The notes below the pieces were generated by a model, which saw only the letters and a list, made by a program, of their open reading frames with translations, was not told where the DNA came from and did not search any database. Of a DNA stretch of 64,000 bases, positions 1-64,000 are shown in pieces (position 1 is the stretch's first letter; every line of letters begins with the position of its first letter). The translations under genes were made by a program, and so were the position numbers. Where the stretch lies: positions 186,001 through 250,000 of the forward strand of contig QPGO01000004.1 of the NCBI GenBank assembly GCA_008632985.1, given 5' to 3'. The DNA is from Psammoneis japonica. Its lineage: Eukaryota.

Positions 1-3000
1 ACTGCAACATTGTTGGATCACCCAAAGGCACTTCTGACAAGCCAAACTTCTCTTTCGTGCATGTTTTGAGAACAAGTTGTTTCCATGAGTTGAGAAGTTG
101 TTGGCTGCCCCCAGTGGACCACATGAGGGAACATGTTTTCCAGCTCTGGCTGAGACTCCATGAGTGATGCTGGGGGCCTGCAGAGTTTGGTGTGCACAAG
201 CTCTGCATCAAAGTCATTGGGTGATGAACAAATCAATGACTGTCAACAGCAAAAAAAAAGAGGCAGTTGTGCAATTGCACAAAATCGCTCGTGCTTGAAG
301 CACATTGTTTCTGGTTTGCCTCAGTGTGCTGCTCTTCAGATGTCAAAAAACACACCCAACCCACCATTTTTGTTCTTAGAAACAGCAAAAACAAAACACA
401 AATGGCTTCACAAAGTGGGGAGCAATGAAAAATTTTGCAAAGGAACTCTCATGTAGAAACACACATGTGTGACGTGCAGTGCATGATGAAAAAATGTTTG
501 AGTGATGGTGAAGTGCTGCGGGGCCCCACCCCTTGAGCTGGAGAGGAGCACATTGGATGTGTTTGCCAAGGTGATGGCTCCACTTTCTGCCAAGACAAAG
601 CATTTGCAGAGTGGGGCGGGCCCACCAAGGAGGTTTGGAGTGAACTCCCAAGTGCTTGCAGTTTTTTGTTCTTGCAAGTGCTTTGTCCCAGCACTGCTGC
701 TGCATGTTTTGGGGGCTCCTGCAGGACAGCTGTGAATGTCTCTGTTGCCCCTGTGCATGACCAACTTTTTTGTGTGCCTCTGTCATGGCAAATCAAGACT
801 CCAAAAAGGGCACAGCCAGTGCTCTCCTCATGGACATTGCTGTGTGGTGCTCCAACAACATCCTCATCCCTGAAGTTGCAAAACACCTGGACAGCACTTG
901 TGCGGCAATGTCCCTGTCAAGCTGGGTGAAATTTCTTAGGATGAACACATGCAATCCAATGGTTGGTTTGTTAAAATGTCACTGGACATGCCCTCAATGA
1001 ACCCACCTAGCTGGAAACCAGCAGCCCTGCCAGCACATCACCTGTTTTGCTCCTCTTCAAGAAAGAGACATTCAAGGCAATGACTTCACACTGGGTGACA
1101 ACACTTTGACTTGTCTTTCATGACAGATGTTGGGATGCAACAAGATCCAACTTGCTCTCTCAAGGCTTGCCTCACAAGAGCAAACGTTGCAGTTGGCACG
1201 GTGCATGTCTTCTTTAACCAAGATGCACAGCACTCTTGCAGGAGCTGTGGAACAAGTTCTTGGACCCCCATTTCCTGCCCAAGCACCATCTGCCAAATCA
1301 GGCTCAATCAACATCTTCAATTCTGTTGATGCACTGAGCAACAGCTGTGCACACTTTGAACAGCAAGACACCTGCACTGTCTTTGCAATCAAGCTAAAAG
1401 TGCCTGTTCAACCACCATCATTTTGATCAGAAGAAGGTCTCCAACAAAGCAGTGCTCCAGATGTTGCTTGTGTGCCATTTGCCAGCAGCAATCAGTGCCA
1501 TTTGGACTGAACCAACCACCTTGTGCTGGCTGATGGAGATTGCTGCTCATCGTCAGTGCAGCAACAGGTCACAAAGCTTTGCTTTGTGAACCAAGTTTGT
1601 GCTGTGATGTTTTTGCTACATGGCACTGCTGCTGACCAGTGGCACCTCAATTTTCAGCAGTGTGCAGCTGACTGTGGATGCTGTGTTCATCCATTGTGAC
1701 ATTTCTTTTGCAACTGTGGTGAAGACTGGGGTTTCACCATCAGAAATGACCCCACTGACAACTTGCTGCAACAGATGCACACTCATTGGCTCAAGTCATT
1801 GTGCATGATTCACAAGCTGCTGCTGTGATCCCACACATTCCCCCAAAGAACAGCAGACTCCACTGTGTTGTTGCTTCTTCTTGCTGAAGCAGCAGCTGCA
1901 GCACACTGAAGCAGATTCTTTTCCAAGTGCATCCAGCATTCTGCAAGAAAGTGCACCAGGCCCAGTGGACTCTCACCCAAAACAGGGAAATCTGTCAATT
2001 GCCAGGCCACTTCTTTGTTCCATTCAAGGATTGTTTTTGCAGCTCTGAGCTTTCATTTTTGACACTGACCAGTTGTTGAATGACAACCAAGAGACACAAC
2101 TCTGTCTTTGCCAAGAGTGCAAAGCACTTGAAGTTCTTGACAAGGGCATTGAAGAATGAACAAGCACACCCAGCTTGTGAGCTCAAGTGCTTTGAAAAGG
2201 AGATTGTGGAGTGTGCTTGGCACATGCATTCCTCAGTCAGGCTGACAGCCCCCAGTTGCTGCAGATGTCTCATCCAATCAGGGGAACCCATGTCACAAGC
2301 GGGGATGATGTGTCAGCACTGGTGTCAATGAACTCAGCAGTGCAGAGCCACCCACTCAAGACCCCACTCTAGACAATGCTTTGGCTCCATGTGACAATGC
2401 TTTTGCAAGCCCATGTGAGGAACTGGATGCTCTCTTCATGGACCTGCTGTGGATGATGACTGTCTCCTGCATTGTGCCTGCATGGCATCTGTTCCCCCAA
2501 GAAGCTCAATGTTTTTCTGAGTGAGGCTGCCAAACATCAATGGTGTTTGGTCTGCACTGGTGACCATGTTTTGATGATTGCCCTGCCCTCCTGAAGAACA
2601 GTTCCCACATCAAGGGTTTTCACATTTGCTTCTGCCAGCAGTTCTTGAAATGAGAGGATGTGTGGTGTGCAGCCACCTGGCATCCCAACCCTGGGAAGCT
2701 TGCCAACTGTGACAGAATGGACACCAGCAGCTTGCCCTTCCACTCACTCCTCTCTGCTTTCAAATTTTCAATCAGACCATCACAGCTGGTTTTGGATCTA
2801 AGACACAGCCCTTTCCCCACCATGTGACCAAGATGCTCAAGATGATTGTTGCACACAATGATGAAAGAGGGGCTCAGCACCAGTGCCGTTGTTTTCTGCA
2901 GACAAGTGCATCTTTCTCCAGACAACAACATGGTGTCTGTCCACGACTCTACAACAATGCCCACAATGTCTCTCTGACAATGATCCAATGGCATCCGTCA

Positions 3001-3339
3001 ATGACAGCAGGAGGGGCCAACATCTGGGGAGGGCTGAGGAAATGACTGACCTGCCATTGGACCTTTTGAGCTGGGTGGAGCCAAGCATCACAAGAGATGA
3101 CTTCAGCACTGCTGCCCTCAACTCTGTGCACATTTCAACAAATGTGCCATCCTTGGTTTCTCTGTCTGCTTTTGAGGTCAACACTGTGCAGTTCAGTGCT
3201 GATGAACATTGTGCACAGCTCAGTGTGGGTGCCCATGCACTGCATGCCAGTGGCTGAGACCTGCTCTGCTGCTGCCACCTGTTTTCACCAGCCAACTTGC
3301 ACCCCATCCAGCTCATTTCCGAGTGTCACCTCAACCTTC

Positions 3340-6300
3340 CATGGAAGACCTGGCTCCTAGATTGCAGCATGACGACCAACTCTGGTGTGACTTGCTCAAT
3401 GCCAGTGGGCATGAACTTGAACTTCCCAAGTGCTCCTTTCACACTGCAGAGTGGGACGACTTCTCTGAGTTCAGTGAGCCAAGTCTCCAGCCATGCAATC
3501 AAGACTTCTCCATGGAAATCTTTTTGGCCAACTGCTCCACCTCTAGATGCAGCACATGCAATTGTCTGCCTTTGAACCTCACAAAATCTTGGGACACTGT
3601 TCTTCCCCTGCTGGGACTTTGAAGAAACAGCAACAAGTGTTTGAAGCTGAGAGTGACGGGAAAGCATCATTTGTGCATGCAGCTCCACTCAACCACACTG
3701 AATCATGGAGATGTTGCCATGTGTGCTGTTTGCCATTGATGACCTTCGTCCTGGCTGGCTCTCACTTTGCCTCCAAAGTGCTGTTGCAGATCCAGCAACA
3801 TGCCATGTGAGTGATTTTTGCTGAATGTGGACACAATCAGAAAACACCAAGCTTCTAATTCTGTGCGGCCCACAATCTCTTGGAGGGGGCGGATTTTGTT
3901 CTTTGGATGTTGAGCAGGGCATTGCGCAACTGCAACAGTTTCTCAGGCACTCTCGTGGTGCTCAGCACATGTCACCAGATGACCAACCACATGCCGCAGT
4001 GCACATTGCCATTGCTTGGCATCAGCTGCATTTGGGTGCAGGAATCAGTTTCCTCAAAGATGTCAGCACCAGACGACATCCACATTGTGAGTCACTGTGG
4101 TTTGCATCAGTTCGCTCTTTCCCACATTGCATGGGAGGCACTGTTGCCATGTCCCAGGATGGGGTGTTGCCTCCACAATGTGACAATGATCAGTTCTCAA
4201 TGGATGTTGCATTGGAGTTGGTGGAATTTTTGTCCCGATAAATTCAGCAGATCAACTGTTGTCAGTTGTGCCTCAAGGTGCTCATGGTTTCAGACATTGC
4301 CTTGGTGGATGGTTGCCATCTGGATGAGTCCAAAAAGTCTTTGGTGACCCTGTTCACCTCAGCAGTGTTGGCACTCTCCACAATGTTGAACAGACCAAAA
4401 CCTTGTCACAAGGCATGGGGTCCCTGGACACGCTCTTGTGAAAAGTTGTGTCATGATGGATCCACCAGACTGCATGCTCCTCTGGGAGATTGGTTGGTGC
4501 CTCCTTTCAAAATGCAAATGCAAGCCTCTGCTTGTTGGTCTCCAGATGAATTGTGCTCACATGCAAGGTCTCCATCCGGTTTCAACATGTTTCTGGCCCA
4601 GGACACAGTTGCGACATCATTGCATCAAATCAAAATGGTTCCAGCTCCATCTGACTCATCTTTCCTGGCAGAGATTGACTCCATCAATGATGGACGTTGG
4701 CAATGCATCCCTCACAGGTCGAACCTGACAGCAGAAATGATGCCTCCTCCACCACCCAAGTTCTTCAACAATCATCTGCAAGCACTGCCCCTCATTGGGA
4801 TTCTGCCCTTTTCTCCGAGATGGAATTCCACATCTCCCTTGGAGAACTGGCAGATTGCTTTGCATCAAATCACCTGACATCAGGAAGCAACGGGTCCTTG
4901 ATCCTCCAGAATGCTGCTTTTGGGTGGACCATTGCATTCAATGGACGACCTTTGGTTGACTGTGCCAGACTGGTGTTTGGTCGAATGCCTTCCTCTTGCC
5001 AAGCTGAAGCACGTGGCTTTCTGTCCTTGACATGGTTTGTTTTCCACCTGCTGGAGTTTTGCAAAATGTCCTCTTGTGAGGGTGTTGACAACTGGTGTGA
5101 CAACAAGGCTCTAGCTAGACTTCTTTCTCACCCAACACACAGCCGTCCTTCCACAGATCCCTCTCTTCACGTGCACCCCGAGCTTGATTTTCATCTCCGC
5201 AAGCACAGTGCCAATGTCTTGTCATCAGATTGGGATGTTCTCAACAAAATTTGTCAGACCTTTGAGGCCATCAAAGCTGTTCTCAATCCTTCTTCCCTTG
5301 ACCATGCTCCCACTCTTGAGTGGGTAAAAGGACATCAAGACAGACATTCTCTGGTGGAAACTCTGCCTCTTAACGCCCAGATTAACATGCATGCTGACAA
5401 GCTGGCAGGTTGACATCAAGGTCAACATGACATCAACATGACAGCGGTGATCCCCTTTCCCCACTGCCAGTCCTGCCTCAGTCTTCAAGATGGGGCCATT
5501 GCAGCAGGGCTTAAATCTGCTGTCCAACATGCAGCTGCGGCTCCTGCCCTCCTTGAATGCATTTGGGAGAGAAACGAATGGGACAAATCCACCACAGAAA
5601 AGATGGATTGGAAAGTGCATGCCATGGTGGTGCATCGGCACTCTACGAAGCATGTGTCCACCATCAAATTGACCCATGAGCTGCTTCCTGTGAGTGAGAT
5701 TGCTTGCTGTTACAATCCAGTCAGACCTCATCATTGCCTGTCTTCTTGCAAACATCCTGTGGAAGATTGTGATTGCATCTTACGGTGTCTGGCCAATGAA
5801 CCTTGGCGACGCAAATTTCTGCAAGGCCTGCAAAAATGCTGCAACAACATTGACACAATGCCTCCTCTTTGGGATCTTCTCTTGTTCTCTGTCGAAGCAT
5901 GGTTCCAAGGTGAGATGACATGCAATGATGACATTTGCCCAATGTTGCATTCTTTGTGGAGAGCCCAGTCAAAAACAGGGTGGCAACAAGTGTTCAACGG
6001 TCACCATTCCACCCTCTGGAGCACTTTTCAGGAGATGCATCTTCACAACACAGAGGACTGCTGGAACATTGTAGAAAGGAGAACTGCCCACCTCTGGCAT
6101 GGGTGGTGCAGACAGGAACAACCTGCATTTGGAAATCCTGGTGGGAGTTGTGGGAGGAGCACAATCAAGAGGTTCACAGTCATGATGTGGACACAAGGAA
6201 GTCATCTCTGCGAAGACATGCTGAAGCCAAACTCACGGTGACACACAACAAAAAACAGCATCTTGCCAAAGACAGGGACATGCTGCTGGACTTGGCAGAA

Positions 6301-6470
6301 GAGCACCAGTCCCACTCCACTTTGCAGACAATGAACTGGGTTGCCATGGCAAAACCAAGACTCAGAGACAGTCTCAAGAAAGCAAAGTGCTCCATGCTTT
6401 GCGGCACTTGCTCTGTGGCCAGTTATTTTGGCAGGGCATTGCCTTCATGTGATGCCTGTTCTGGCTGATC
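3340..6470 (+). mobile_element. Degenerate 5'-truncated non-LTR retrotransposon (LINE): C-terminal part of RT, RNase H, Cys/His knuckle
   Basis: Motifs across shifting frames: LQHDDQLWCDLLNASGHELELPKC, HKILGHCSSPAG, ILCGPQSLGGGGF..EQG. RNase H: SNGS..AAFGW..SCQAEARG..WCDN..DWD..WVKGHQD..NMHADKLA. Then C..CKHPVEDCDCILRC, QSKTGWQQVFNG and WWELWEEHNQEVH. Many stops and frameshifts. Confidence 0.85.
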
Positions 6471-7297
6471 CAGGCAAGCTTCTGCCACACTGAAAGGTGT
6501 GCTGGAAGTGTGGGTCAGCCGGTGCTGGCCTGGCTGACAAAGGAGTGACAGCACTCAAAATGCAGATCTGTTTTTTTTTTACATCCCACCCAGCTCCCTG
6601 GCAAAGGTGCTACCCCCTGTGGGTTTGGTTGTTCTTGTGTTCCTCCTGCAGAAACCAAAAAAGGTCACACTCACCTGCTGTTGTCCTCAGCTCCAGCCTG
6701 CCTTCTTGGTTGATGAGCATGCTTTCTACACTGCACCAAAAGCAGCAACAAGAAAGACTTCTCAGTCAATTGTCTTTTGAAAACTCATGACCACAGGACT
6801 TGCAAGCATGTTGCTGAACACTGTCTTCAACCTGGCCAAGATGTGGTTGTCAAGCTGCTTGCAGAATGGCTGAAGAGGCTTTTTGCTCTAAGTTCAGCCA
6901 GCAAGAACAAGGGGCAAAGCAGTTGCTGAGCAACTTGGGCCATTTGTTGGTGGCCAGGAGTCACTTCTGTGAAGAGAGCAGCACACAACAGACAGGAGCT
7001 CAGAAGGGTCTTGGCCCAACAAACAACCCCCCCTGAGGAGCTTCTTGACTGAGGCAGGGGATCTAAACTGAAAAGCCAGAGCTGGCAGAGTCAAAAGGGT
7101 GCAAGAAGTTGTGGACAGTTCAGAGCAGTGTGCAGTGCACACCTGGTGGTTCATGCAACACAATCTGCTGCCTTGGGCTGCCCCCAGAATTAAGTCTTCA
7201 ACAAAAACTTCAGCGGTGGTTGGCACATGAGGAATCACACCACGTTGGCTGCAGAGACAGGTGCACAGTTGCTCCAGTGATCAACCACAGCAGCAGT

Positions 7298-7359
7298 TGA
7301 GCCAGCCAGCAAGTGTGGTGGTGACTTTTGAGCTAGCCAGCAAGTGTGGTGGTGACTTG
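7298..7359. repeat. 31-bp direct tandem repeat x2
   Basis: tgagccagccagcaagtgtggtggtgacttt vs tgagctagccagcaagtgtggtggtgacttg. The internal difference is CA vs TA. Confidence 0.85.
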
Positions 7360-7574
7360 TTGGTCCAGCCCACTCACAGTGCTGGCTGCATTGTTGCCAC
7401 AAGGGGTTGCTCACCATGTGGACTGGTGCTGGGAGCAAGACCTAAGTTTTGAGGCATCTGGCATTTGTGTGGAGATGACATGTGCCAAATGAAAGATGAA
7501 ATTTGTGCACTCTGAGAAGCTGAAAGATGTTGAGCTGATGCAAGAACATGGCGATTGACCAACCTTGTGTTCAG

Positions 7575-9150
7575 TCACCAGAGCCCTGTTTTCATCAGTG
7601 AGCATGGCACTGAAGCTTTGGCAAAGTCACTTGCCAAGCTGATTTTGACACCAGTCCTGAATTGTGTGGCAACTTTGAGAGCTGAGTGTGTGTGACATTG
7701 CCAAAGGAGGTGCAAAAAGGTGGAGTGCAGCAGCTCCAGTTGTCCAAGCAGAGCACACTGTGGCCTCTTTTGAGACCAGGCTGGCACTGGAATCACGAGT
7801 TTAATTTGTGCTGTGCTCAATCCACTGCTCATGCTGCTGATGGTGGGAAAGTGTGTTTGTTTTAACAGCCTCTCATGAGAAGCACAGAGACAGATGTGTC
7901 TGACTCTCAGCAGAGGCAAAAGAGCACACTGCCAACTCTCCTGCTGACAATGTCATCCAAACAACAAACACATGTTCTTTTAGAGCTTAACTCCCTCAAA
8001 GAACCAACAGCACTGTTGGCCTCTTTGTTCAGCTCACTTTATTTTCTCCACATTTGACAAGCTCTGGAGAGAATCTAGCTTGAGTTGAAGCTGTGGACAG
8101 GGCAGCAGCTCTTTTTCCAGTGCGTGTGTTGAGAGCAGCACATGAACAGTTGTCTTCTTGGTTTGTGGGGGGCTGCCAGCCATTGACACACACAGCACAA
8201 GCAAAGCCAGAGGCTCAAGACTGCCACGGACATCCATCTTCTCATGCTGGTAAAGACATTGGACACCAAATCACAATTGATGACCTCCAATGTCACATCA
8301 TGTTCACAAAAGAGATAAAAAGAGACATGACATTGGCACCATTCATTTCCTCATGACTCCTCCTCATTTGTCACCAGTGCCCTGTTTTTGTCTGTGAGCG
8401 CGGCACCACTGAAGCTTTGGCAAAGTCACTTGCCAAGTTGATTTCGACACCAGCCCTGGATTTTTTGGCAACTTTGAGTGCTTCATGTGCATGACTCTGC
8501 CAGAGGAGGTGCAAAAAGGTCAAGTGCAGCAAAGCTCCAATTGTCCCAGCAAAGCACACTGTTGCCCCCCTGTTTTGACCAGGCCGAGCATGAGTTTAAT
8601 TTTTGCTGTGTGCTCAGTCCACTGCTCATGCAGATGATGGCAGGAAAGCATGTTTGTCTCAATGGCCTCTCTTGAGAAACACAGAGGCAGATGTGTCCAA
8701 CCCCCAGCAGAGGCACAAGAGCACACCACCTGCTCCCAGCTGATGTCTCCCAAAGAATGAGCGTGCCTTTTTTCCCCCTTCAGAGCTCAACTCCCTTAAA
8801 GAAGAACCAACAGCGCTGTTGGCCTCTTTGTTCATTTCATTTTTTCCACATTTGACAAGCTCTGGAGAGAAGCTGGCTTGAGCGTCAGCTGCACGCGGGT
8901 GGGGCAGCTCTTTCTCTGGCATGTGTTTTGAGCAGCAGCAGTGCATCGACAGCCTTGTTGGTTTGCCAGCCATGGACACACAGCACATTTGCAAAGCCAG
9001 AGGCCAGAGGTTCAAGACTGTCAGGGACATCCATCTTCTCAAAAGCCATTGAACACCAAATCACAATTGATGACCTCTCACGTCACATCATGTTCACAAA
9101 GAGACAAAATGAGACATGACATCGCGGCGCCCTTCATTTTTTGACTCAGG
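7575..9150. repeat. Diverged tandem duplication of a ~0.8-kb unit (copy 1 ~7575-8365, copy 2 ~8371-9150)
   Basis: Collinear shared blocks: ctgaagctttggcaaagtcacttgccaag, ccacatttgacaagctctggaga, caccaaatcacaattgatgacctc, gtcacatcatgttcacaaa. Confidence 0.9.
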
Positions 9151-29071: not shown

Positions 29072-29272
29072 ATTGGCAGTAGCAGTCGACAGGCTGGTTT
29101 CCATTTCAAAGGAACACGTAGCATAGTGCTTTAGAAGCATTCCTAATCATCGTAGCAATGATTTTGAGAGACTTCCCTTCGATCATGCGTCGATAAAAAA
29201 TGGTATCCATGTAACCTCCAATAAGAACAATATCGTAGAAACGTGGAGGGCAGATGCGTAACTCGCTCTAGG

Positions 29273-47951: not shown

Positions 47952-48908
47952 TTAAACTCCAGAGAGATCTACGTGATCATGGTAGTCCTCGTCGGCTGAA
48001 ACGTCATCAGACAGAGCGTCTAGCTCCCTCTTGTGGACCTTGGCATGAAACGACTCGTAAAGATTTTCTTGAAAGTACGGCGATTCTTGGGGCAACTCTG
48101 CTTCAAAAGAAGCGTCTTCATGCTCGTGTTCGAAAAGGTAAGGTCCCGCCATTCGCTGCGGTGGTCCTCGTTTGCCATGGCTTTGGTGGTGGTGACTCCG
48201 ACTGCTTGTGTGGCTTCTACGTGTTCGAATAAAAGGGATTGTGACGGGCGAGTTACTGTCGCAGAAAAGTCTCATTTCTTCTTCGTAGAGGCTCAAAATT
48301 GCGTGATGATCCCGTAAGAAGTCCAACCCCAGCAACAAATCCACTCCTTCAGTGCCTGTAGACTCTAACACAGTAATAGCAGGCCCCTCAACCAAAGCAT
48401 CTCCCATGTGGATCAAAAGTGTCTTGGCCGGAATACGCCCCAAAACGCGACATTGCCCGACACCTGTGGCATGCCCAGCGTACCGCCGGTCCAACAAGTG
48501 GAGCAGCCCGGCTCTTGCGGCAGCTCCCTTCGAAAGAACTGTGACTTGAGCGCCTGTATCAACAAAGGCTGACACTGTAGATATCTTGGTGTCAAAATCT
48601 TCTTCGTGTTGTTGTTGTAGAGCGCACGGGACTTGAAGTAGACTGGTTTGAGATGCCGAAGCGGTACACTGAGGTTCTTGTAGACCATCCCATGTGCCAC
48701 TGCTTTCCAGATTTTCCCAATCATTTTGAGCGTCGTAATCGAGTACTTCAGAAAAAGGATCTTCATTGGGATGAAGTTCTTCTGATGGCCCGTCATGACG
48801 TGGAGGTTTCAAGCCGAAGCCATTTTTTGATGGATTTCGAGGCACCGCAAGGACTACGCACAACGTCAACAAGACAGCGATGAACCATTTTGGTACAGCA
48901 AAAGCCAT
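47952..48908 (-). CDS. Signal-peptide-bearing Ddi1-like retropepsin aspartyl protease domain protein
   Basis: AFVDTGAQVT, LLDRRYAGHATGVG..LGRI and DLLLGLDFL. No UBL or UBA domain seen. Confidence 0.8.
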   Translation of the reverse strand: MAFAVPKWFIAVLLTLCVVLAVPRNPSKNGFGLKPPRHDGPSEELHPNEDPFSEVLDYDAQNDWENLESSGTWDGLQEPQCTASASQTSLLQVPCALQQQHEEDFDTKISTVSAFVDTGAQVTVLSKGAAARAGLLHLLDRRYAGHATGVGQCRVLGRIPAKTLLIHMGDALVEGPAITVLESTGTEGVDLLLGLDFLRDHHAILSLYEEEMRLFCDSNSPVTIPFIRTRRSHTSSRSHHHQSHGKRGPPQRMAGPYLFEHEHEDASFEAELPQESPYFQENLYESFHAKVHKRELDALSDDVSADEDYHDHVDLSGV

Positions 48909-49320
48909 TGTCTTACTAGGCACCGTCGAGGCCTTTGATATTGATAGCTTAAAGTCAATAGCAACAGCCAAGGCCAAGACAAAGATGAATACCCACTATC
49001 TAAAAGAACAGCAAAACACTCAACAAAAGCGACGACTTCGAGTGATGGGTGATGGCTCGGGCTCGGCGCTTTTGATCTTCTCACGCGGAAATCCCTACAG
49101 CGCTTCCAGTATTTGCTGTACATACGTGAATTCTTCGTGGTGGAATAGTACTTCACTGACGTTTATGCAGATAGATCGACGTCACTAAAAAGGAATCATA
49201 AATAATGATGCGAACTCCGAACCATTTCACTTAGTAATGTTCCACATATCCGTTGCAGTTTCCTTAAGATATTTAAGGACCAACGGTTTCCGTTTTCGTT
49301 CAAAATACATTCTAAGAATT

Positions 49321-49506
49321 CTTAAAAGCGGAGCTCGTTCAAGCCGACGTCATCCAACGGTCGGCACGGAAAACCGTTAGCCGTTAGCACATGAATCGCC
49401 AATCGCTAACGGTTTCCCTGTCTCTCGCCACATTTTTCCTTCCACCACGAGAGAACAGCTCATAATCTAGACGATCACTCGCTTTTCACGCCGCTCCACT
49501 TTTGAG
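49321..49506 (+). repeat. 5' LTR
   Basis: 176/186 identical to 57957-58142 by manual alignment, no indels. Confidence 0.95.
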
Positions 49507-49533
49507 TGGTGCTTCGACACGTTATTCGAACAC
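49507..49533 (+). other. tRNA primer-binding site
   Basis: TGGTGCTTCGACACGTTATTCGAACAC lies directly after the LTR. Its reverse complement ends in ACCA and contains GTTCGAAT (T-loop-like). Confidence 0.8.
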
Positions 49534-49555
49534 ATCATCTTCCGTCAACATAACC

Positions 49556-52500
49556 ATGGCCGATCAACCGCCGGCCAAACGCGCCAAAACGCAATCCACC
49601 GACGAACACCTCGCCAATCCCCTGTCCAAAACTTTCATCCCGAAACAGCGCATGTCCTGCACGCATGGACGAATCACCTTCTCTTCTTGTCCCCCCATCA
49701 CCGCCGAAATGGGCGATGCCGAACGATGCTCAGCATTCAACATCAATGAAAATGCCGTCAATGGCACGTCCGGACTCACTCATGCCAACCGTCTCACAAT
49801 CATGGGCAATCTAACGAACACCATCAGCCTCGTCGAAGTTAAAACCAACGAATTCAAGACAACGGGCAAATCCTGCCTCAAGCAACCGGCCAACCTGACA
49901 GTGCTGTCCCACCACAACGCAGCAGGCAACCTCATCCAAAATTGCCTTGACGACGAAGGGCAACTCAAGCCGATCCAAGACGGACCCGTGGCAAATTGCC
50001 GCCCCGACGGAATCATGTGCGCCAAAATCAGAGGCATCATCAACCTTACGTCCCTCAGCGAATCAGTCAGGAATCCCACAATCACATTCTTTATTCGTTT
50101 GCCTGTGGAGAACGCAAACGCAACCAACGCCGCCGGAAACCAAGTGAATCTGTTCACCTTTGGTGGCCCAAGCAACTGCATCACATTGGACAATCAAGCT
50201 CATCAGGATGTCATCCACAACAATGACGATGACGCCATCCAAGAGCCATTCGATCTCCAAGCACCTGATTTCACTGACCCCGACGAAGCAACTGTCTCCA
50301 CCGAAGCAAAAGGCATGAGGATTGACGCTCTCATCACCCAAGCAGGGTGCGAGACCATCCCAAATGACGTTTTTACGTCCATCGCGCCCACATTCGTGGA
50401 CGACCCATTCAAAATGCTCAGCCGAGTCCATCAAACCACTGCCCAGTCAGACGGGACAACCATCTCATCGACAGCACAAGAATGTCGCGACAATTGCAAT
50501 GTCGCACTCAGTGCCCTCCCCAATCACCCAGACTCCGAATGGCAGTCCAATCCTCTTCGCACATTCGTGGACAATCTCGATCCCCAGATTCGTCAAAAGA
50601 TGGAGTCGGACGGATTCCGACGTCATGTGGAAACGGTGTCACTCCGTTGTTCCAACCAAACGAACCTCATCCAGGAGGCGTTCTCAGCCGCCAAGAAAGC
50701 AGAATCAGCTCTTGCGGCGAATCGTCTCTTCATTCAAGGCGAACTCCATAAGACTCACGGCTTCGCTGCCGTTGTTCAGCAATCCCCGGCGTCCTCATCC
50801 CTTACATCCATGAATGCTCCCACTCAACAGCAAGCCACAGTCAATCACAGCGCAGCCGAAACTGCTCTCAATCGCTGCAAGACCGCAGGCAAAGGCTGTT
50901 GGGGCTGCGGATCAACCGATCATCTGCATTGTGAAGCCAAAACCAAAACCATCACTTGTCCCAGGGGTGCAGAACCAGAAATCCAGAAGAACGCAGAAAT
51001 CGTCCACAAGGACTTTGTTGAACGCATGAAAAAGCGCCGAAACGGAAACCGTCGCCGTGCCCAAGGACAATCCAACGCAGGCAATCTTCTACTGTCAGCC
51101 TTGCTTTCCCCTCAATCTCGGACCGGAGGGAACGATGAAATCACGAAGCTCATGCTCAGCTCCATCAAACAGTTGCCACTTGGAAAGGACAACGGTGAGG
51201 AGGAGAAGGAAAAAGAAGTGTTCACGTTCCACTCCTGCGTCCTCCAATCATCCACTCCGAGCAATCTACCGCAGCTGCCGATCCCGGTCAACAATGCGCT
51301 TCCCCACATCGTCCTCCAGCTGGGATCACCCGACGCTACATTCAACCCCGGCGTTCATGCCATCGTGGACAGCGCCGCTGCCCTAGTCTGTGGGAACAGC
51401 GACTGCTGGATGCCTGTCGCCAAGGCTTGTCCCGAGCTCGTCAAGAGCACCTGTCACGCGAAGGATCATCATTCGCCCATTGTCCTCTCCGGCGTCGTTC
51501 AGAAGGATGACAAAACGAAAGTTGACGCATCTACCAACCTTCCCGCAGTTCTAGAATTTTTCATGCCATGCATGACGAAGAACGGTCAGCCTACGTCACT
51601 GAAGATCGCAGTCGGGAAGAGCGTCTCAGTAAACTGCATCATCGGAATGAGCTTCATCTCGACAGCTCAACTCGTCATGGATTTCTCCAACAATGTCATC
51701 GAGTCCAAACTTCTGGAATGCGAACCATTTCCAGTCGAATGTCGCACCCCATCATGCTCGACACCGAAGATCATCCCTCGCACGGAACCGGTGTCCACAC
51801 CGAGCTTGATTTCGATCAAGCAACAACTTTCCGATGTTGACAGGTTCATCACGAACTGCTCATACGATGACAAACCTCGTGCAGAAATCCTCACCAACTC
51901 GACTTCATCACGAGTCAAGTTCAACCTCGGTCCATCAACGGCCACACTTTCTGGTCAGTGCTGTCCTGTGCCCAAACCTCTGTCGCATTCCATGATGTCG
52001 AATCAACACATCAAGCCAATCAGTTGCATCATGCAAATCACTAAAATTGCTTGCTCACTGTTGACGTTTCAAACACCATCTGCAGGTCATCAAGCACCTA
52101 CATCCCGCAAACGTCATCAAATCATCATCCCCAAACCTCCCCATCGAGCCAAGAAGCCAAATCTCTTCGAAGGACAGAACCCACCTGACGTCCAGAGTAA
52201 CTTCCAATTCCTTCATGAATCAAGAGTCGGAAAAGTCATCAGGAAGAATGCACGGCCGGCTAGGACCGACGACGACATCGATCAGAAATTTACATCTCGC
52301 GTTTACGAACACGACAGAGACTGTCAAGAGCTCCAGAAACTAAAATTCGATGACAACACACCAGAGCGAATCAAAACACGAGTCATCGAACTAGTCAAGG
52401 AATGCTGGTGCTGTTTCTGCCAAGAAAACGTCAAGATTCCAATCCAAGATTATGAGTGCGTTGTCGACACAGGGGATTCAAAACCAACCGTGGCCAAGAA

Positions 52501-55500
52501 CATCCGATGCGGTCTCCACGAAACCCCGATTGTGAACAAAGCCATCGACGCGCTCCTTGAAAACGGACAGATCGTCCCAGACACAAGCAGCGAATGGCTC
52601 TCTCGCATCGTTCTCGCTCCCAAACCTCATCAAGAAGACGTTACGGACATCAACGAGTTCGCACGGCGATTTTGCATCAGCTGCATCAACTTGAATCAAG
52701 TCACCAAAGTCGTCTCATGCTACATTCCACGCTGCAACGATGCCGTCGAGCATGGTTTTGGATCACCCAAATGCTTTTTCCTTTTGGACGCATGCAGTGG
52801 CTACCATCAGATCAAAATGGAAGAACTGTCCGCCGCTAAGACAGCCTTCGCCGCCCCTCAAGGCAGAAAATGTCGACACACAGTCATGCCCTTTGGAGCA
52901 GTCAACGGACCCACCACATGCGTCATCATGGCCTACGACCTCAAGGACAACTGGGACCATGAAGCAAAACAGATGGGCATCAAACTAGACGACAGCAACG
53001 GGTCAACCATCATCATAGATGACAACTTCGGATTCACAGAGAGCTGCGAAATCGGCCTCAAATGTGTCGAGGCAATTCTTCGCGTCGCTCGTCGTTGCAA
53101 CCTCTCATGGAAGCTATCCAAATGCTTGTTCTTCCCGGACTCAGTGGAATTCGTAGGGCATGACTTAACGCGCCAAGGTAATCTGCCAGCAGACTCGAAA
53201 AGCGGACTCCTAAAACGATGGAAACGACCAACGACTGTCCGCGACGCATCCAGTTTTGTCGGTTTTGGGAACTTCTGTCAAAGATGTGTTCCCTGCTTTT
53301 CGGACAGAGTCGAACACATGCGCAACCTTGTCAAAGACAACGAATTCGATCATAAGATGCTACCGTCCGAATGGACAAAAGAACTCGACGACGAATTCGA
53401 GGACATCAAATCCGCCATCCTCTCTAAACCCCCATTGCGTCGCATCGACCGCAACAAACGGCCGCACCTCCGCACCGATTTCTCAGGAAAGGGCATGGGC
53501 CATGCACTTCTCCAGCCCGGAGACGACAAAGAATCCCTCGCAGCCATGGAACGGGAAGATGCAGGAGGCAAATGCGAATTCGACATCACGTTGAGCGGTC
53601 TCCGACTACTTCCATGCACTTTCGGATCTAGATTGTGCAAAGGCATCGAACGCTGTCTTCACTCCTGCATGGGAGAGGGTGCAGCCCTTCGCTGGGCGAT
53701 CCACAAAAACTCTCACACAGTGCACGGCCGTCCATTTACGAACATCGGCGACTGCTTCGGTCTCCGATGGATCATGTTTTATGACGGATGCAACCCAGCA
53801 ATCACACGCCTCCAAATGGAGCTCGTTTCATGGTGGTTCACAATCGTCCACCGCCCCAATCGCATGGTTGTCGACGCCGACTACTTTTCCAGATGAGGAC
53901 AGGAAATTGACCTGGACCCACCACTCACAAAATGCATGACCATCGCTCAACAACAGCTCACGTCGAATCCTCCGGCAGCCACCGGAGAAGAAATGCAAGC
54001 TGAGAACATGCCAGGCTGTCGACGAAACACCAAAGCTTTGGCTAATGTTTTGACAGCCATCAAGCCCTGCACTGTCAAGAAAGGCGAAATCGAAGACTCT
54101 GTCATGCTCGAAAACATGCCAATCCTTTTCGGAGTTTCGAATGACGTGACACCAAAGTCTATGATCCAATGCAGTGGAGCAACGCATGCATCGTTTCAAT
54201 TGCTCACATGCTGCTGGGCCATGTGCGGATTCTCCTCGGGACACTTCTTCTCATCTTGTGAGGAACATCAATTTCCGCTCACAGTTGTGGTCGCCGCCGA
54301 TTGCGACATGCTAGGACGCAACCTCATGCAAGAGATCGGCAAGGTTCCAACCATCTTGTCGTCAGCGAACCATCTCTTGAACCATGTCAAGCGAAATGTT
54401 GTACAGGACCTTGAAGGGTGCTGCATCACGTCACCGCATCTGCCGGACGCATCATCACAACTGGCGTTTGCAAGAACGCAAGCTGCCATCATAGCGGAAA
54501 TGCGGAATCGATGCCAACTCAAGTGCTTTGCACTCCAAACAACGCCATTTTTTAAACGAACCATCCCATCGCAATTCAAGAAATCGTGTGCAATGGATGG
54601 GTGGCATGTCGAAGAAGACGAGATCCGATTTGCTGAAATGGGTGACGCGATCGACGACTCAGCGACATTTCTGTTCGGCTTCCACATCGGTGTCACAGGA
54701 CAGAAAGTTTCAGTTCAAATCGTCCGGCCACCCCCGACCCGTTCGTCCATCTCACAATTTATCCACAAACCCTTCAACTCCAAGAGCTGCGCGATCACCG
54801 CTCTGCCCGACACTGCAACCGATGAAGCCGAGGATGACAGATTTATGCTTGAAAAAGTGGTGCCTGCTCAACCACCAAAGCAGTCGGACGCACTCATCGT
54901 CAGTCATCTGATCGAAAGAGGACCCAGACCAGCGAATCTGTGCGGCACAGCAACACACGACGTGGATCACCCCGCTCCCCCCATCGGTCACTACAACTCC
55001 AACCCCTTCAGTCAAGTCTTTGGAATGTTTTTCCAAGATGAAGACTCTGAGACAAGAATCCGCTGCATTTCAGCGTGCGAATGCATGTCGTGTTGGGGGC
55101 TGGAAAGAAATCTCATGCACAGGATGTGCACGGACCCCCGCCAATTGAACCTGCTCACAAACGGAGTCCCAGGCAAGACAAGCCACGCTGTGCTGCAAAC
55201 CATGCACGACAAACTCACAGATGTCAGACCATCATCCACGGAACTCATTGATGCGTCACAGCAAACGGCTCCTGCAGCAACCGCTCAAGCATTTCTAAAT
55301 GGTTCCACAACGACCCGACTGCCCAATCGAGAAACCTGGATCCAAGAGCACTCACGTGACCAAGAAACAAACCTCATGATCAGAATGATCAACAACCCCG
55401 CCTTGATCAACAAAGAGCAATTGCAAAACATCCACTGCTGCTGTCGACAACTGATGCGAGCAGGCAACATCCGAATCGAGGACGAAATGCTCGTCATCCG

Positions 55501-57712
55501 TGAATCGGTCGATTCAATCGGCAATTTCGCCAAACCACGCATCGTCCCATCATCTCTTCGCAACATCATCTTCATTGCTTTTCACACGAATCCCATTGGA
55601 AGCCACTTTAGCGTGTGCTGCACCTTTCACAGGATCCGACTTCACTTTTTCTGGCCGACCATGTACAAGCACGTCGCCGACCTCATCAGCAAATGCCCGG
55701 GATGCACCCTCGCGAATGCTCGATGCAGACAAAAATCGGAACTAGTGTGCTCTTTCCCCGTCGATGAGCCATTCAAGCTGATGCACGTGGACGCATGCAT
55801 GGTCAGACGTCATCAAGGTTTCCAAGGTGAAAAATGCCACATGAACGTCGTTGACGGCATGAGCACTTTTGCAGCATCAGAGGAAATCTGCGGCGAAGTC
55901 AACGCCGAATCATTCAGCAAAGCCATCATGAAGATTCTCCTCAACCATGGACTATGTCATGCAATCGTGATCGACAAAGACTCGAAATTCCGTGGAGTGT
56001 TCATCCAAGCCATCAACCTGCTCGGACTCAACTTGCATCAAGCATCCGGAGGAAACCACGACCCTGTCCTCACAGAACGACATCACGCTTTCTTGAACAA
56101 ATCTTTGCGCATTTTTTGCAATGAACGCGACTCCGTCCGGACAGCCACAGAAGGCATTCAATTGTCGGCCCATGCATGGAACTCAGCCCCAGTCGCAGGT
56201 GCAGATGTCAGCCGATCTCTCGTCGCCATCGGCCGTGAGTGCCGATTTCCCATCGATTGCACGGACTCCAGTCATGTCAACCTGCGGCCAACAACAACAT
56301 CAGTCGAGAATTACGCCGAACATCTACGCCGTTTACTTCCCAAGTGCCAGGAAGTTTTTCGAGTGCTCATCCAAGAGCACAGAGCAATGCACCGCGAATG
56401 TGTCAACAGCAACTGACCAGAACCTTTGGTTTGCTCTGTCGGAGACTTCGTTTTCATTCGAAGAGCGGCAAAATCTGATGCTCAACGCAGCCGAGTTGAC
56501 AAGATCATGCATCGCCATGCAGGCCCATGGAAAATAACTGAGAAGCCACCAGGAGCTTCCTGCCGAATCCGTCACTGCAAGACCAACGCAGAAGACAAAA
56601 AGCATGCTTCGCACATGACCCCATGTCCCACTGAACTAATTCCATTTCCACCTCTCACAGGACCTGACAACGCACACGGACAAATCAATCGACAAATCAA
56701 GAAGCATCCATTTTCGGAGGCTGGCATTGACTCCTGCACGCCACTCCAACCCTGGAGCGTTCAACGCGACAATGAAACGCAAACATCTCAGTCACTGCTG
56801 TCAACAGCCAACATGGCATGTGTCGAATCTGCTGTGCATTTTCCCACACTCGCTGAACTCAACGATGAACTCGACGGGGTGCACACCGAAGACGGATTCT
56901 TGCCAGCGACGATGGATCATCTTAAACCCTCATCGAACGAAGTGTTCATCGAGGCACTCGAAGGCAGCATGTCGAGCACAAATGACAGTGCGGACTCGAC
57001 TGGCCCCCAGTCCAACATCGGAGCGCCCACAGCACAGCAAAACCACAAACAATCACACTCGGTGCCGAATCTCAATCAGCTCATGGCCCGCATCATCCAA
57101 AGCGACCACAAGTTGTTCTTCATGTCGTGTCGAGCACCAGGCACAACTCGCACCGAATGGAATCTTGTTCAAGTTAACCTTGAGCGAACTGTGGCGGAGA
57201 ATCCCAACGCTTTCTCCGACGGCAAAATCTGCATCGACTTCTACGCACGGCATCCGCATGATGCGCAATTCAATGCCCCAAACCAGCGACATTGGAAGGA
57301 ATGTCACGAGCTAAATGGACGACACGTTCTCCACAATGACTTTCATCTGCTCAAACCTTCCCCGAATGAAACCAGTTGTGCACGTGACAAACGATTGATC
57401 GTTTTCTCCCAATGGGTGCACATCCATCACCCAGACGTATTTCTTCATGGACCGTTCAATTTTGCAATGATCAACGGACGCCAAACACGCGATCGCATGT
57501 CAGCTCACGACTGGAAAACATTGTCATCGTCATCCGAACACTGCGACAATGAGTCACCAAGCCCCAACCTCTCCCATCCATCGCACTCATGTCACGTGAA
57601 TGCACAGTTTCATGCTGTCCATCAAGACCCTGCCATCGAAGCCCGGCTGTCTGCTCTCCTCACATGCGAGCACACGTGTGACAATTGGTCCCAACTGCTG
57701 ATCAACGTTTAA
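49556..57712 (+). pseudogene. Gag-Pol polyprotein in one continuous frame, interrupted by two TGA stops (53894-53896, 56414-56416)
   Basis: Zn knuckle CWGCGSTDH; protease IVDSAA; RT LDACSGYHQI..MPFG..NGP..IIIDD; RNase H TDFS..GE..DC..DADYFSR; integrase H..H..CPGC, HVD..IDKDSKF..TER. The three listed ORFs are all in the same frame. Confidence 0.92.
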
Positions 57713-57956
57713 CGGCAATCCCTGCCGCACTACACTCAAACCATTCCAAAATGGAATTGGCGCCAAAATCAATCTCAGGCTCAAAACGAACCACCCCCTT
57801 CTTTTTCTTTTTCTTTTTCCAATCGGGTTTTTGCATTCAAGCCTTTTTCCCGAATCATCACTCATCTCCCATCACAATCCTCGTGGTTCCACGTTCCGCT
57901 TTCATCCTCATCTTGTCAGAAGCTCAAGATTGGCCTCTGCCATCTTTTTTGGGTGG

Positions 57957-58142
57957 CTTAAAAGCGGAGCTTGTTCAAGCCGACGTCATCCAACGGTCGG
58001 CACGGAAAACCGTCAGCCGTTGGCACATGAGTCACCAATCGCTGACGGTTTCCCTGTCTCTCGCCACATTTTTCCTTCCACCACGAGAGAGCAGCTCATG
58101 ATCTAGACGATCACTCGCTTTTCACGCCGTTCCACTTTTAAG
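57957..58142 (+). repeat. 3' LTR
   Basis: Direct repeat of 49321-49506, ending CTTTTAAG and followed by AATT. Confidence 0.95.
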
Positions 58143-58977
58143 AATTGATGAAAAAGATAAAATGCCGTTGAAACAACACACAGAGAGAATTAAAGCAAAC
58201 TGCTGGGGCCCAGTGTTTTTGGATGTTTTCGATGACTTTGAAACTGTGGAACACTTGGGGGTCGCGATTTGGAGTTTTTGACCCCCAGACCTATTTTAAT
58301 GCACGCCCACATGTCTGTAGAATGCATTAAAATACCAACGGTCCAAATCAGGTCGTGTTCCACAATTTCGGTTGCTCGCCAATCAAAGAAATGAGGCACA
58401 ACATTAATTATTTTAATAATTATATATATTTCAATGATCACACCCAAAACTCATACCTCATCTTCCGAAAAAACCGCCAGAGCTTACCCCCCCATTCCCC
58501 CCCCACGGAATGAGCAGACTCTCAGCTTTCCATCGATGTATCGCATGTGGGGTAACTGTGCGTACAAAATTTCAACTCATCATAAATACTCAAGTGCACG
58601 GTATGCGTTGTGATGACAACATGGAAATACAGTGCTTGTAGGTCGTGGGTCAGCGTGGGTCAGTGACCAAGCTACGGACAGATCCCGTGAGATTATACTG
58701 CAGTATAAAAGCTACACATGTGTTATGTAGGATTCTCTAGGAACGTTCATCGCGCGACTATGAAGCCTTTTACTTCAAGGTTTGTCTTTTAAATAAAATG
58801 GAGGTAGCAGCTGGTACAATTCATTACGTACCAAGGGCTCAGGCGCCTCATTCAGCAGCAGCACCGCGAGAACAACATCAGCATTACTACTACTGATTTA
58901 CTCGTTGGGATAGGTTGTACATCGGCAAAAGAGAAGAGTAAGTAATGTGCACGATAGATTATGTATGTAAAGTATAT

Positions 58978-59015
58978 CATATTTATCACCTGTCATCATA
59001 TTTATCACCTGTCAT
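58978..59015. repeat. Perfect 19-bp tandem repeat x2
   Basis: catatttatcacctgtcat occurs twice, just past the stop codon of the recombinase gene. Confidence 0.8.
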
Positions 59016-59020
59016 ACTCA

Positions 59021-61092: not shown

Positions 61093-61404
61093 GGTGATTC
61101 TGGGCTTTTGTTTCGACTCGTTGTGCTCTCGAGGAAACTTTGTTTGCTTTTTCACACATTTCAAACCTTGGTCGATGGCGCAATTCGGCTGGAGTTTACA
61201 TGAACTTGTTAAATAAAAGTTATGATTATTTTCAGTTATGCACTTAAAACATTAGTTTCCCACAAGTGGGTCAGTTTGGGGCAAGAAGGATTGCTTGACA
61301 ACGGCCATTTCAAACTCGTGGATGGGTTGGGTCAGTTGCGGGGCAGGCGCCATGTATTTGACCGGGGAGGATCCTGTGTTCCCCTTGTTGTTACGGTCTA
61401 CAGT

Positions 61405-64000
61405 ACAGCACATGCATCATGCAGCACACACCTCGCTCAGGGGATCACGCATCCCTTCGTCCCAGATCAGCTCTAGCTGGCAGCTGGACGTCCTCAATGG
61501 GCGGAGGATGGCGCTGGTCTGTCCCCATGCAAGCATTAAAAAGTGTGCCAACCCACCACTCACGGAGACCACCGACACCACGCCGAGAAGACAAAAACCT
61601 GGCAACACACTGACAACGGCACCAGAATCGACTCGGATCTCCACGCACAGCCTGCGAAAACTGCACGTGACAACTGCCCCTCACTCGTGCGACTGTGTCA
61701 ACCACATGACATCCACCTTTTCCCCTTTTTTTAAACATCATGTTTGAAGGACAGACAGGAATGGGCACAAGCACGCACTCCAGAGCAACAGATCATGAAC
61801 ACGGCGGTCGCCTTCGCGTTCGACAAAATCAGCCGAACCCTGACGTCATGAGGAAAAAGGAGGAATCTTTCGAGGTGGATTCAATGGGATTTGCATCGCG
61901 CTCGAATTTCAAGTCATTTGAGTCAGTGTGAACAGCAAAGAACCATCGCGATGGTGGCAACCAAGCTGTTTTCAATGCAGTGTTCTTCTTTCCTTGATGC
62001 TCTCATGAATTTTTCATGAGAGTGCGGCACATTGAAAAGAGTGAAATTTTGAATGTGTTCTACAGAAATTGTGGTCAGCAAAGCAGTGCAACAACACAGA
62101 ACACAGCAACACAGTTGTTGACTTCATGTGTTGGTTTTTAGGATTTGCTGAGGGCACTGAACAGCCCAAAAAGGACAAGAAGCAATGTTGAACAAAAACC
62201 GCAGCTGCGCAGTTTGTGGGTAAGAGCATCTCGTGTTGTTGCCGCTTTGGTCAACAAATGGTGTGAATGATGACATTGTTCATGATGTGTGCTCTCCTCT
62301 TGTCGAGTTGATTCCATTTGATGGAATGTTGTGGTGTGAAGACCTGTGGCACGTTGTTTGCGTGGATTTCTGCACTGCGTTCACTGAGGAAAAAGCGGAG
62401 TGAAGCCAAAACAGCACATGAATGTGGGTTCACTGCTTGTGTTCACCAACGTCATCACAGAAAGCATGCATGCCAGCATGACATGGTGAACATGAAGGCG
62501 GTTGTCTTCACTTGTGATCTGTCACTTTGCTGCAACTGCCTGCCTGCCAGCAACTGCCAACTGCAGTGCACTGAGATGAGAAACACCACCTCCATCGTCA
62601 GTGCAAAGAGAGCAGATCCCAGCCCCTGCGATTTTTGTAACTCTCTCACACCGCTCCTCTGCCCCCCAATCCCAGGCCTCTCAAATCCTCAGTCAGTCTC
62701 AAGAACTTTCTTGGCATCACCCTCTCCAACCACCACCTCTCTCTTCTTCTTCTTTTGCCAACCCTTCCCTTCCCAACTCTCTCTGCTCCCACTGCCCACC
62801 TGTCTGTGCTGTCAGCCTCCCTTTCTCCCCTCACCCCCAGCCCCCTGCCCCTGCTGCTCTCTGTGCATTGTGTTGCCTGCCACCTGCACCAGCCACCCCC
62901 ATTTCTTCCCCACCCCAGCTGCCATTGTTGTGTCTGCTTCTGAGTTTCAAAATGACTTGATTTCACACTCAATGCTTGTCAAACTTTCTTGACTCTGCTG
63001 TTTCAGTGCTGGCACACAATCAACTCAGAACTCCCCCTTGCACAGGTCAACAAAACAGCTGATCTTTGAGACAACTGATTGTGCACAAAGTGCACATGTG
63101 AAGTCAGCTGCTCCAATTTTTCTTGAAAAAAAAAGGAACTGGAGCACCCTGGTTTTTCTCTTTAAAAAAGGAGTTGGAGCACCCTGTTTTTTTGTGGCAG
63201 TGTGAACTCATCACGACAGTGTGAAGGACATGCGCAATTGTTGAAAACAGCCAAACAACTTGATGAAAGAAACAAAAAAAGCAGCTCAAAGGTGCATCTG
63301 AAAGGCTGTGTGCAGGTTTCCATTGTTTTCTCATTAAAAATAAGTGCTCCCCAAAATGTTTTGTGTTTGTTGGTTGCTTGTGCCACCCTCCAAGCAACAT
63401 GGAGACAACAGCCGGCACTGCAAAACAACCAGATCTGAGAAAAAATGCAACAGAAATTGGGGGGAAGTCCACAAAGATTCACTTGCACAAAACACACAGT
63501 GAGACAGAAGAAGAGCAGGCTCAGTGCAGTGCCCCAGCACCTCAGCAGCACACGTGTGTCTCAATGTTAGAAAGTTGGGGTTTGACACCGTTTTTGGAGC
63601 ACAGACAGACAATGTTCAAGTGAAAGCAACAACACTGACAATTGTTGGCAACATGGTGAGTTCAGACAACTCAAAATGAAGTTGGGTCTCTTGCTTGCTT
63701 TTTTAGCTTCTGCACTTGGGCAACACAGCAATCAGCACAGAGTGGTGTTTGCAATCCACAGGGTGAGTTTAGGGATCAGCAAAACCAGCACAGATTGGTT
63801 GGCAGTGAGCCATGAAATTCCAACACTCACCTTGGATGAAAACACATGCCCAGGACAACATCAGCAACAGCGCCTTCTCTTCTCATTCTGTGCTCACCCC
63901 CCCACCCCCCACCCCCTCTCCCAGCTGCACAGCCAAAGTTCCAGAAGCAAGCCTCTTGTTCTCAATGGGGATGAGGAGTGCTTTCAAAAAAAAAACACAA
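61405..64000. repeat. TpA-depleted repeat-like block; CpG retained to ~61950, then also depleted
   Basis: TA is lost abruptly after ttacggtctacagtacag (~61390-61407). CA/TG-rich, with no recognisable coding motif. Confidence 0.8.

Follow-up and report, generated by a model that had tools for sequence, protein, structure and literature searches.

Long terminal repeats (LTRs) of retrotransposons in the diatom Psammoneis japonica differ from each other predominantly by transitions at TpA dinucleotides, and the damage lies in sharp patches that usually affect just one of an element's two ends, accompanied by CpG decay. The best explanation, and one considered probable, is a TpA-specific A:T>G:C mutator that acts after integration, on kilobase patches of silent chromatin. 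Such patches usually stop before host promoters, yet can damage host genes. The observation originated in a 64,000-nucleotide stretch of contig QPGO01000004.1 (positions 186,001 to 250,000), hereafter the window, and was followed through the assembly (91.4 Mb in 597 contigs). That the host is a diatom is also borne out by a neighbouring kinase, whose named matches are from Ditylum, Seminavis, Cylindrotheca and Fistulifera. A targeted A:T>G:C mutator has so far been known from one preprint, concerning one unrelated alga, and LTR pairs provide a map of where such an activity has operated.

The window element (Table 1) is a Ty3/gypsy LTR retrotransposon, as evidenced by the order of its reverse transcriptase (RT), RNase H and integrase domains, together with its LTRs and target-site duplication. 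The interior consists of a single reading frame, interrupted by TGA at 53894 and 56414; stops within RT matches genome-wide are mostly TGA. Both in this element and in a sister copy described below, the LTR termini form an 8-nt inverted repeat, CTTAAAAG...CTTTTAAG (49321-49328 and 58135-58142), rather than TG...CA, which is the usual but not universal form of LTR ends; AGT...ACT ends were seen in two copia families. No tRNA gene was found in the 64-kb window.

Table 1. Features of the window (positions counted from its first nucleotide; TpA and CpG as fractions of expectation)
Feature	Position	Strand	Details
Near-complete TA-loss block	1..8000		TpA 0.05-0.11, CpG 0.06-0.24; TG/CA about 1.8-2.0
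Host aspartyl-protease gene (PF09668)	47952..48995	-	5' end faces spared 5' LTR; TpA normal
Target-site duplication AATT, left	49317..49320	+	4 nt, flanks 5' LTR
5' LTR	49321..49506	+	186 nt; direct-repeat search; ends CTTAAAAG...CTTTTGAG
Presumed primer-binding-site-like sequence	49507..49524	+	Starts TGG; abuts 5' LTR
Ty3/gypsy element interior	49507..57956	+	TpA 0.15, CpG 1.02
RT (PF00078) and RNase H (PF17919, PF17917)	52763..53824	+	Pfam domains
Integrase zinc-binding domain (PF17921)	55544..55720	+	Pfam; 3' of RT-RNase H, the gypsy order
3' LTR	57957..58142	+	186 nt; direct repeat of 49321-49506
Target-site duplication AATT, right	58143..58146	+	4 nt, flanks 3' LTR
395-nt dispersed repeat	58211..58605		44 matches in genome; 68 nt from 3' LTR
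Second TpA-dead block	61501..64000		TpA 0.04-0.09; CpG 0.89 falling to 0.10

The initial annotation, whose coordinates covered the 3' LTR alone, had counted 10 differences from its 5' partner in 186 bp, all of them transitions, and had classed five as TpA, two as CpG and three as other changes; re-alignment returned the same figures. The differences lie at LTR positions 16, 58, 66, 75, 78, 88, 135, 144, 174 and 184, with TA opposed to TG or CA at 58, 66, 88, 144 and 184, CpG affected at 16 and 78, and other changes at 75, 135 and 174. Seven TA sites exist in either LTR (3, 58, 65, 87, 143, 148 and 183), of which five differ, again as annotated, and the probability of at least five of 10 differences falling on 14 TA bases of 186 is 0.0002. 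Four TA losses (58014, 58022, 58044 and 58100) and both CpG losses (57972 and 58034) are in the 3' LTR; the 5' LTR retains six of its seven sites, having lost one at its inner end (position 184; TA>TG at 49504). By itself the 4:1 split is not significant (p = 0.375). Half of the differences are at TA, and three other transitions among 134 bases are more than the pooled rate given below would predict.

A second full-length copy, on contig C81 (locus L020), is 95% identical to the window element and carries its own duplication, TCTT. Its LTRs polarise nine of the 10 sites, placing seven changes in the window 3' LTR and two in the 5' LTR (135 and 184). Two TA sites have become TG in the window 3' LTR and CA in the sister 5' LTR, and were therefore hit independently. 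The sister's split is the opposite of the window's, with three losses in its 5' LTR and one in its 3' LTR. Between the whole elements there are 450 differences, including 61 single TA changes, 95 TG/CA doublets and 12-18 transversions (depending on classing); these pairwise counts, assuming independent hits, give an estimated 71-78% of TA sites hit in the window element and 85-89% in the sister. Set against those estimates, one hit in seven is a significant deficit for both the window 5' LTR (p 0.001-0.003) and the sister 3' LTR (p < 0.0001). At LTR position 174 (window 49494 and 58130), neither TA nor CpG, both copies have C in the 5' LTR and T in the 3' LTR, a pattern unexpected if every copy started with identical LTRs.

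Loci for a genome-wide comparison were drawn from 40 of the 150 listed copia RT matches and 20 of the 150 listed RVT_1 matches, together with relatives of the window LTR; because the matches were picked for long open frames, old elements are under-sampled. A first 53 loci yielded 44 repeat pairs, three of which were dropped as not LTR-like (L030, L041 and L069), and a further 20 loci yielded 18. The 59 pooled pairs, a few with imperfectly trimmed ends, include L106, probably no LTR pair, and L031, whose orientation is unknown, both being left out of some later tests. Their 807 differences comprise 433 single hits among 863 TA sites, 113 TG/CA doublets, 94 changes at 1111 CpG sites, 38 other transitions and 14 transversions, such that 94% are at TpA or CpG and 52 (6%) lie elsewhere. 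The per-base rate is 0.25 at TA and 0.0028 at other bases, an excess over other transitions of about 90-fold for TA and 15-fold for CpG, with TA about 6-fold above CpG. At TA bases, one of 274 changes was a transversion, and among changes private to single copies of copia family A, A>G occurred at 0.0046 in AA and 0.077 in TA.

The changes are distributed equally between strands (208 A>G and 225 T>C), and at palindromic NTAN sites, where the context is equal on both strands, TG accounts for 379 of 765 hits, so there is no strand bias. Neither an ordinary TpA rate nor a one-stranded pattern, the outcomes that the initial annotation had named as contrary to its reading, was found across these pairs; its statement that A>G and T>C occur on the same strand draws its support from the pooled pairs, and not from the window pair, in which just one of the five TA changes is T>C. 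Hits favour TAC over TAT, followed by TAG and TAA, and an excess of TG in coding regions follows this preference for TAC; with context matched, no transcription-strand bias was detected, and with respect to codon position synonymous hits were not consistently in excess. Strand-coordinated tracts were mostly absent in run tests over LTR hits and copy comparisons. Same-strand neighbours made up 180 of 334 adjacent LTR hits, against 167 +/- 9 (p = 0.09), and runs were clear in one of 26 comparisons, the 51 private TA hits of the sister copy (14 runs versus 26 expected, p = 0.0002), which in this respect is unlike most other copies.

The direction of change is from TA. Interior TpA is 0.71 of expectation in copies with 0-1 LTR differences and 0.14-0.5 in heavily hit copies, and declines with rising LTR divergence (rho -0.36, p = 0.02); within families rho ranges from -0.54 to -0.68, reaching significance in family C only. 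Of 2746 residues encoded by the window element's frames, 13 are Tyr, 114 are Cys and 115 are His, compared with 40, 28 and 35 in 1674 residues of four host frames. Copies were hit separately, as in family A 287 of 702 doubly hit comparisons pair TG in one copy with CA at that site in the other. Host sequence was also affected: beside copy L037, a conserved single-copy diatom gene ends at the hit 5' LTR, and at the nine columns where at least half of 52 homologues have Tyr it has three His (CAT), three Cys (TGT/TGC), two Phe and one Tyr. The assembly contains no second haplotype of this flank. Since host DNA never goes through reverse transcription, the mutator acts on the chromosome, which, with the normal TpA of young copies and the independent hits among copies, bears out the proposal in the initial annotation that mutation followed integration. 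TA loss spills 200-800 nt past the hit LTR and then recovers (L037, L038, L047, L099, L113 and L114). A glycosyl hydrolase 47 fragment adjoining the sister's hit 5' LTR (L019:9272-10000, TpA 0.12) probably represents another host gene that the mutator has eroded.

The LTR asymmetry is real and general across the elements of this genome: among pairs with at least eight hits, 23 of 26 have at least 85% of them on one side, and 10 of 26 lean 5'. The unit of damage is a kilobase-sized patch, almost saturated inside and almost intact outside. In four independent copies of family A, TA loss is 70-99% in the first 2.8 kb and 0-19% past 3.6 kb, and in one gypsy family adjacent 500-nt bins show 0/50 and 45/50 losses, with the patch located elsewhere in another copy. 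CpG decay follows the same geography, as in the window pair; 31 one-sided pairs have 37 CpG changes in the TA-hit LTR and 13 in the spared LTR, and in family A the respective frequencies are 3.1% and 0.9% (p = 0.006). In Phaeodactylum, DNMT5-dependent CG methylation is described on transposons along with H3K9me2/3 and H3K27me3 (PMC9998398), and C5 methyltransferase genes are present in this assembly. As CpG decay, the sole proxy here, occurs in the same places as TA loss, it is a fair inference that the patches correspond to silenced, CpG-methylated chromatin. Of the annotated claim that mutation follows a chromatin domain, the domains are seen directly, as patches, and their chromatin state is suggested through this proxy. 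Some C5 methyltransferase genes (L089:1069-2163 on C301, and matches on C297) themselves lie in TA-dead DNA (TpA 0.07), several being broken, and are possibly carried by mobile or viral DNA.

What determines the damaged side is more complex than first annotated, where the part facing the neighbouring gene promoter was described as spared. In the window the description is accurate: the 5' LTR faces the aspartyl-protease gene (presumably DDI1-like), over which a spliced-type transcript contig spans 47897-49031. In the sister the side flips with the host gene, as the spared LTR is the 3' one, which faces a HIT-family gene whose start is 339 nt away, and the hit LTR borders a TA-dead block. A tally by hand of the window, the sister and 18 one-sided elements with screened flanks (short ones only for L067, L060 and L114; promoter orientation at L048 and L050 left out) found six LTRs that face, at no more than 1 kb, the 5' end of a gene with a Pfam name, of which five are spared (window, sister, L037, L052 and L112) and one is hit (L067), giving p of about 0.2. 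Promoter sparing as a single rule is rejected, given L067 and two families with a fixed side regardless of neighbours. Across 15 copies of copia family C there are 7 hits in the 5' LTR and 99 in the 3' LTR, the 5' LTR being spared even where both flanks are TA-dead, and the seven copies of family A have 52 hits at the 5' end against 2, irrespective of flanks. Comparison of flanks gave weak agreement, with 10 pairs for and 7 against among an initial 41 (p = 0.63), 17 for and 9 against among 58 (p = 0.17; rho -0.32, p = 0.035), and 11 for and 3 against among pairs with at least eight hits (p = 0.057); it is confounded because a hit LTR spills into its own flank. Both element-borne and neighbour-borne influences are needed; the side appears to be set partly by the element, in a family-fixed manner, and partly by the neighbourhood, with a tendency to stop before an active host promoter. 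One idea, in which patches are halted wherever a promoter, the host's or the element's own, keeps chromatin open, covers most cases; family A, whose own 5' end is hit, is a misfit unless a further assumption is added.

In the window, the 395-nt repeat beside the 3' LTR mostly retains TA despite being a repeat, and alleles vary in whether they carry it (a joint in run X1 skips it). A tandem duplication at 24977-29539, of about 2.3 kb and 82-99% identical, keeps normal TpA, so duplication alone does not attract the mutator. At 58833-60763, a deep, multiply spliced plus-strand contig (run X2, GT..AG introns) is antisense to two long minus-strand frames (59021-61251), which have no Pfam match. No RNA run was listed as containing the element, and its missing cover in X2 was given no weight. 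Because TAA and TAG disappear, TA-dead DNA contains long open frames that are spurious and will misdirect gene prediction.

These findings have consequences for the dating of elements. With just 6% of differences outside TpA and CpG, LTR dating overestimates age, as the initial annotation anticipated, and on the best explanation LTR divergence is therefore a measure of how much mutator exposure an element has had, more than of its age. In run X1, a joint from 49315 to 58140 (30 letters on the short side, likeness 90) bypasses the whole element at a depth of 20, versus 60 in the flank, and an empty allele therefore exists. Between the X1 flank contig and the window, 9 bases in 3820 (0.24%) are different, compared with 5.4% between the LTRs. 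This comparison is qualified in that X1 could be the very sample that was assembled, that contig building retains a single allele of each bubble, and that part of the flank is coding sequence. Should the insertion postdate the divergence of the two alleles, its age would be overstated by LTR divergence about tenfold or more. Of the 12 flank differences listed, three are TA in X1 and TG/CA in the window, too few for use, and setting aside TA and CpG sites reduces the divergence of the window pair only to 3 of 134 bases. Gene conversion is a known distortion of LTR dating in the opposite direction (PMC7251063). Diatom element ages have been derived from sequence identity and one genome-wide rate (bioRxiv 10.1101/2025.10.24.684338), and would be too old wherever the TpA process runs.

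A mechanism can be proposed in which integration of a mobile element would expose kilobase patches of the inserted copy to the mutator; the position of the patches would be set partly by element family and partly by neighbourhood, and they would tend to halt short of an active host promoter. Within a patch, T-A steps become T-G or C-A on both strands equally, and the resulting loss of Tyr codons and TA-containing signals disables the element, which may represent a selected defence. The chemistry is, on balance and by a modest preference, adenine deamination by a TadA/ADAT2-type enzyme, in which adenine would become hypoxanthine and be read as G on replication. Pure A:T>G:C transitions at TA, with TAC the best context, fit adenine deamination, and this context resembles the UACG preference described for TadA (PMC8052359). 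Deaminase searches of the assembly gave 9 and 5 matches, including a TadA-like gene (L077, C38) and an ADAT2-like gene (L080, C26), together with two ADAT1-type loci (C40 and C79). The first two look like ordinary tRNA enzymes, and no dedicated mutator deaminase, nor any expanded or unusual set, was found among these genes, so no candidate stands out. A zinc deaminase fused to a 2-oxoglutarate dioxygenase (L079:313-1785; PF14226, PF03171), a base-modifying pair, probably functions in nucleobase salvage. If a deaminase worked on single-stranded DNA, hits would be expected to cluster in same-strand runs; those observed are weak, as would suit numerous small episodes or a base mark that is symmetric. 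A bolder and distinctly speculative proposal is that of a natural adenine base editor for diatom genome defence, a TadA/ADAT2-family enzyme steered by CpG-methylated repressive chromatin, repelled by active promoters of host or element, and common to Rhizaria as an old SAR immune system.

The main rival, which seems unlikely though it merits serious attention, is that thymine, and not adenine, is altered: silent DNA would be marked at TpA by a modified or oxidised T, of the 5-hydroxymethyl- or 5-formyluracil type, which would mispair with G. Oxidised T is prone to such mispairing, in a manner like the decay of 5-methylcytosine at CpG. The letters left behind would be identical to those of adenine deamination, as sequence looks alike whether A or T was altered, and a symmetric mark on a palindromic dinucleotide explains both the strand symmetry and the weak runs. 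Near-saturation within the young life of an element would, however, require a very mutagenic mark, and a TET/JBP family search of the assembly was blank, though uninformative because its control was blank too; an MT-A70 search with a blank control was uninformative in the same way. Repair offers a different route, in which gaps filled at T:G mismatches from 5-methylcytosine deamination would be copied by an error-prone, polymerase-eta-like enzyme with a WA motif. TA loss and CpG decay in the same LTR and zone would follow naturally, but TA hits exceed CpG hits about 5 to 1, and polymerase-eta-like enzymes leave a looser, transversion-rich signature that is difficult to reconcile with the scarcity of both AA changes and transversions noted above, making this route improbable.

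Other alternatives accept less of the preferred reading, or place the process elsewhere. The mutator may be real and the sparing of promoter-facing LTRs a matter of survivorship, selection having removed alleles with a patch over a host promoter. Patches do spill into and harm host genes, and surviving insertions alone are visible; in family C, however, the 5' LTR and leader stay spared within TA-dead blocks that have no gene close by (9 versus 94 hits in 15 elements with both flanks below 0.15 TpA), a setting in which no host promoter could be under selection, and survivorship is given a small chance, hardly above that of the repair route. Editing of element RNA or cDNA before integration, by an ADAR- or APOBEC-like enzyme, gains some credit from the family-fixed gradients, which resemble editing gradients. 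ADAR also favours U before A (as cited in bioRxiv 10.64898/2026.01.13.699255). Against this, the two LTRs within a copy are not alike, A>G changes are interspersed with T>C changes, and single-copy host DNA beside an insertion is hit, leaving such editing very improbable. Most implausible of all is that the polarity is reversed, with CA/TG gaining TA as in repeat-induced point mutation (RIP), or that base-calling or assembly failed at modified bases. An LTR pair alone is directionless, and X1 may be no independent sample, but TA falls with LTR divergence, Tyr codons are lost, TG/CA doublets require a TA or CG start, and 27 of the 28 places listed within the element carry the sister copy's letter in X1 contigs.

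A post-integration TpA mutator, the preferred reading, can be set beside several known systems. APOBEC3 and ADAR edit retroelement intermediates on one strand and before integration, leaving flanks untouched. The process seen here similarly involves deamination-type, context-specific transitions in retroelements, but affects both strands, after integration, flanks included. The decay of 5-methylcytosine at CpG, associated in diatoms with DNMT5 methylation, is a secondary and weaker signal in the same patches (94/1111, 15-fold); it cannot yield A:T>G:C, and TA loss runs ahead of it, as in the window element interior, where CpG is 1.0 and TpA 0.15.

RIP of ascomycetes converts C:G to T:A, mostly at CpA, and so creates TpA (PMC2621366). 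The likeness lies in dense, dinucleotide-specific transitions in repeats and in dead elements; the direction is opposite, as TpA is destroyed here. RIP leaks into adjacent single-copy DNA, and a similar spill occurs here; it takes place between mating and meiosis and requires RID. Unlike RIP, which is triggered by duplication, the diatom process leaves one LTR of a near-identical pair spared in 23 of 26 cases, and spares half of a seven-copy family. Homology alone is not what sets the target, because near-identical LTRs of one element are treated differently. The process works like RIP in reverse, yet fails RIP's defining features.

The closest parallel is the chlorarachniophyte Bigelowiella natans, in which TpA hypermutation of integrated NCLDV and virophage DNA has been described (Mettrop et al., bioRxiv 10.64898/2026.01.13.699255); no account of such a process in diatoms was found in the literature searched, subscription journals being mostly beyond the reach of that search. 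According to the preprint, the signature was measured de novo in vegetative lines, at a local rate raised ~1000-fold and in some lines only; TpA-poor, CpA/TpG-rich clusters include reverse-transcriptase and DDE domains; and ADAT2 is proposed as the enzyme, unproven (10.64898/2026.01.13.699255). Shared with that system are the almost exclusive change of TpA to TpG/CpA (433 single hits and 113 doublets of 807 differences, 52 lying outside TA and CpG), the equal use of both strands, and the confinement to foreign or mobile DNA, the element and TA-dead blocks here having TpA of 0.04-0.3 compared with 0.4-1.0 in genic stretches of the window, with spill into one host gene. ADAT2-like and TadA-like genes are present here, the B. 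natans candidate being ADAT2/3, and may be ordinary tRNA enzymes. The systems differ in that the hosts belong to separate supergroup branches, in that the B. natans targets described are viral inserts, whereas in the diatom they are gypsy and copia LTR elements, often near saturation, and in that a rate was measured in B. natans, the 90-fold figure here being a relative excess and not a rate. Kilobase patches, family-fixed sides, spill into a host gene and coupling to CpG decay are described here and not in the main text of the preprint, in which neither 'LTR' nor 'diatom' occurs. A natural DNA adenine deaminase, if true, would matter for base editing, and the LTR-pair map offers a direct route to both the guiding mark and the enzyme. 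The signature seen in B. natans is thus now found on ordinary diatom transposons, to which the geometry of the patches is added here.
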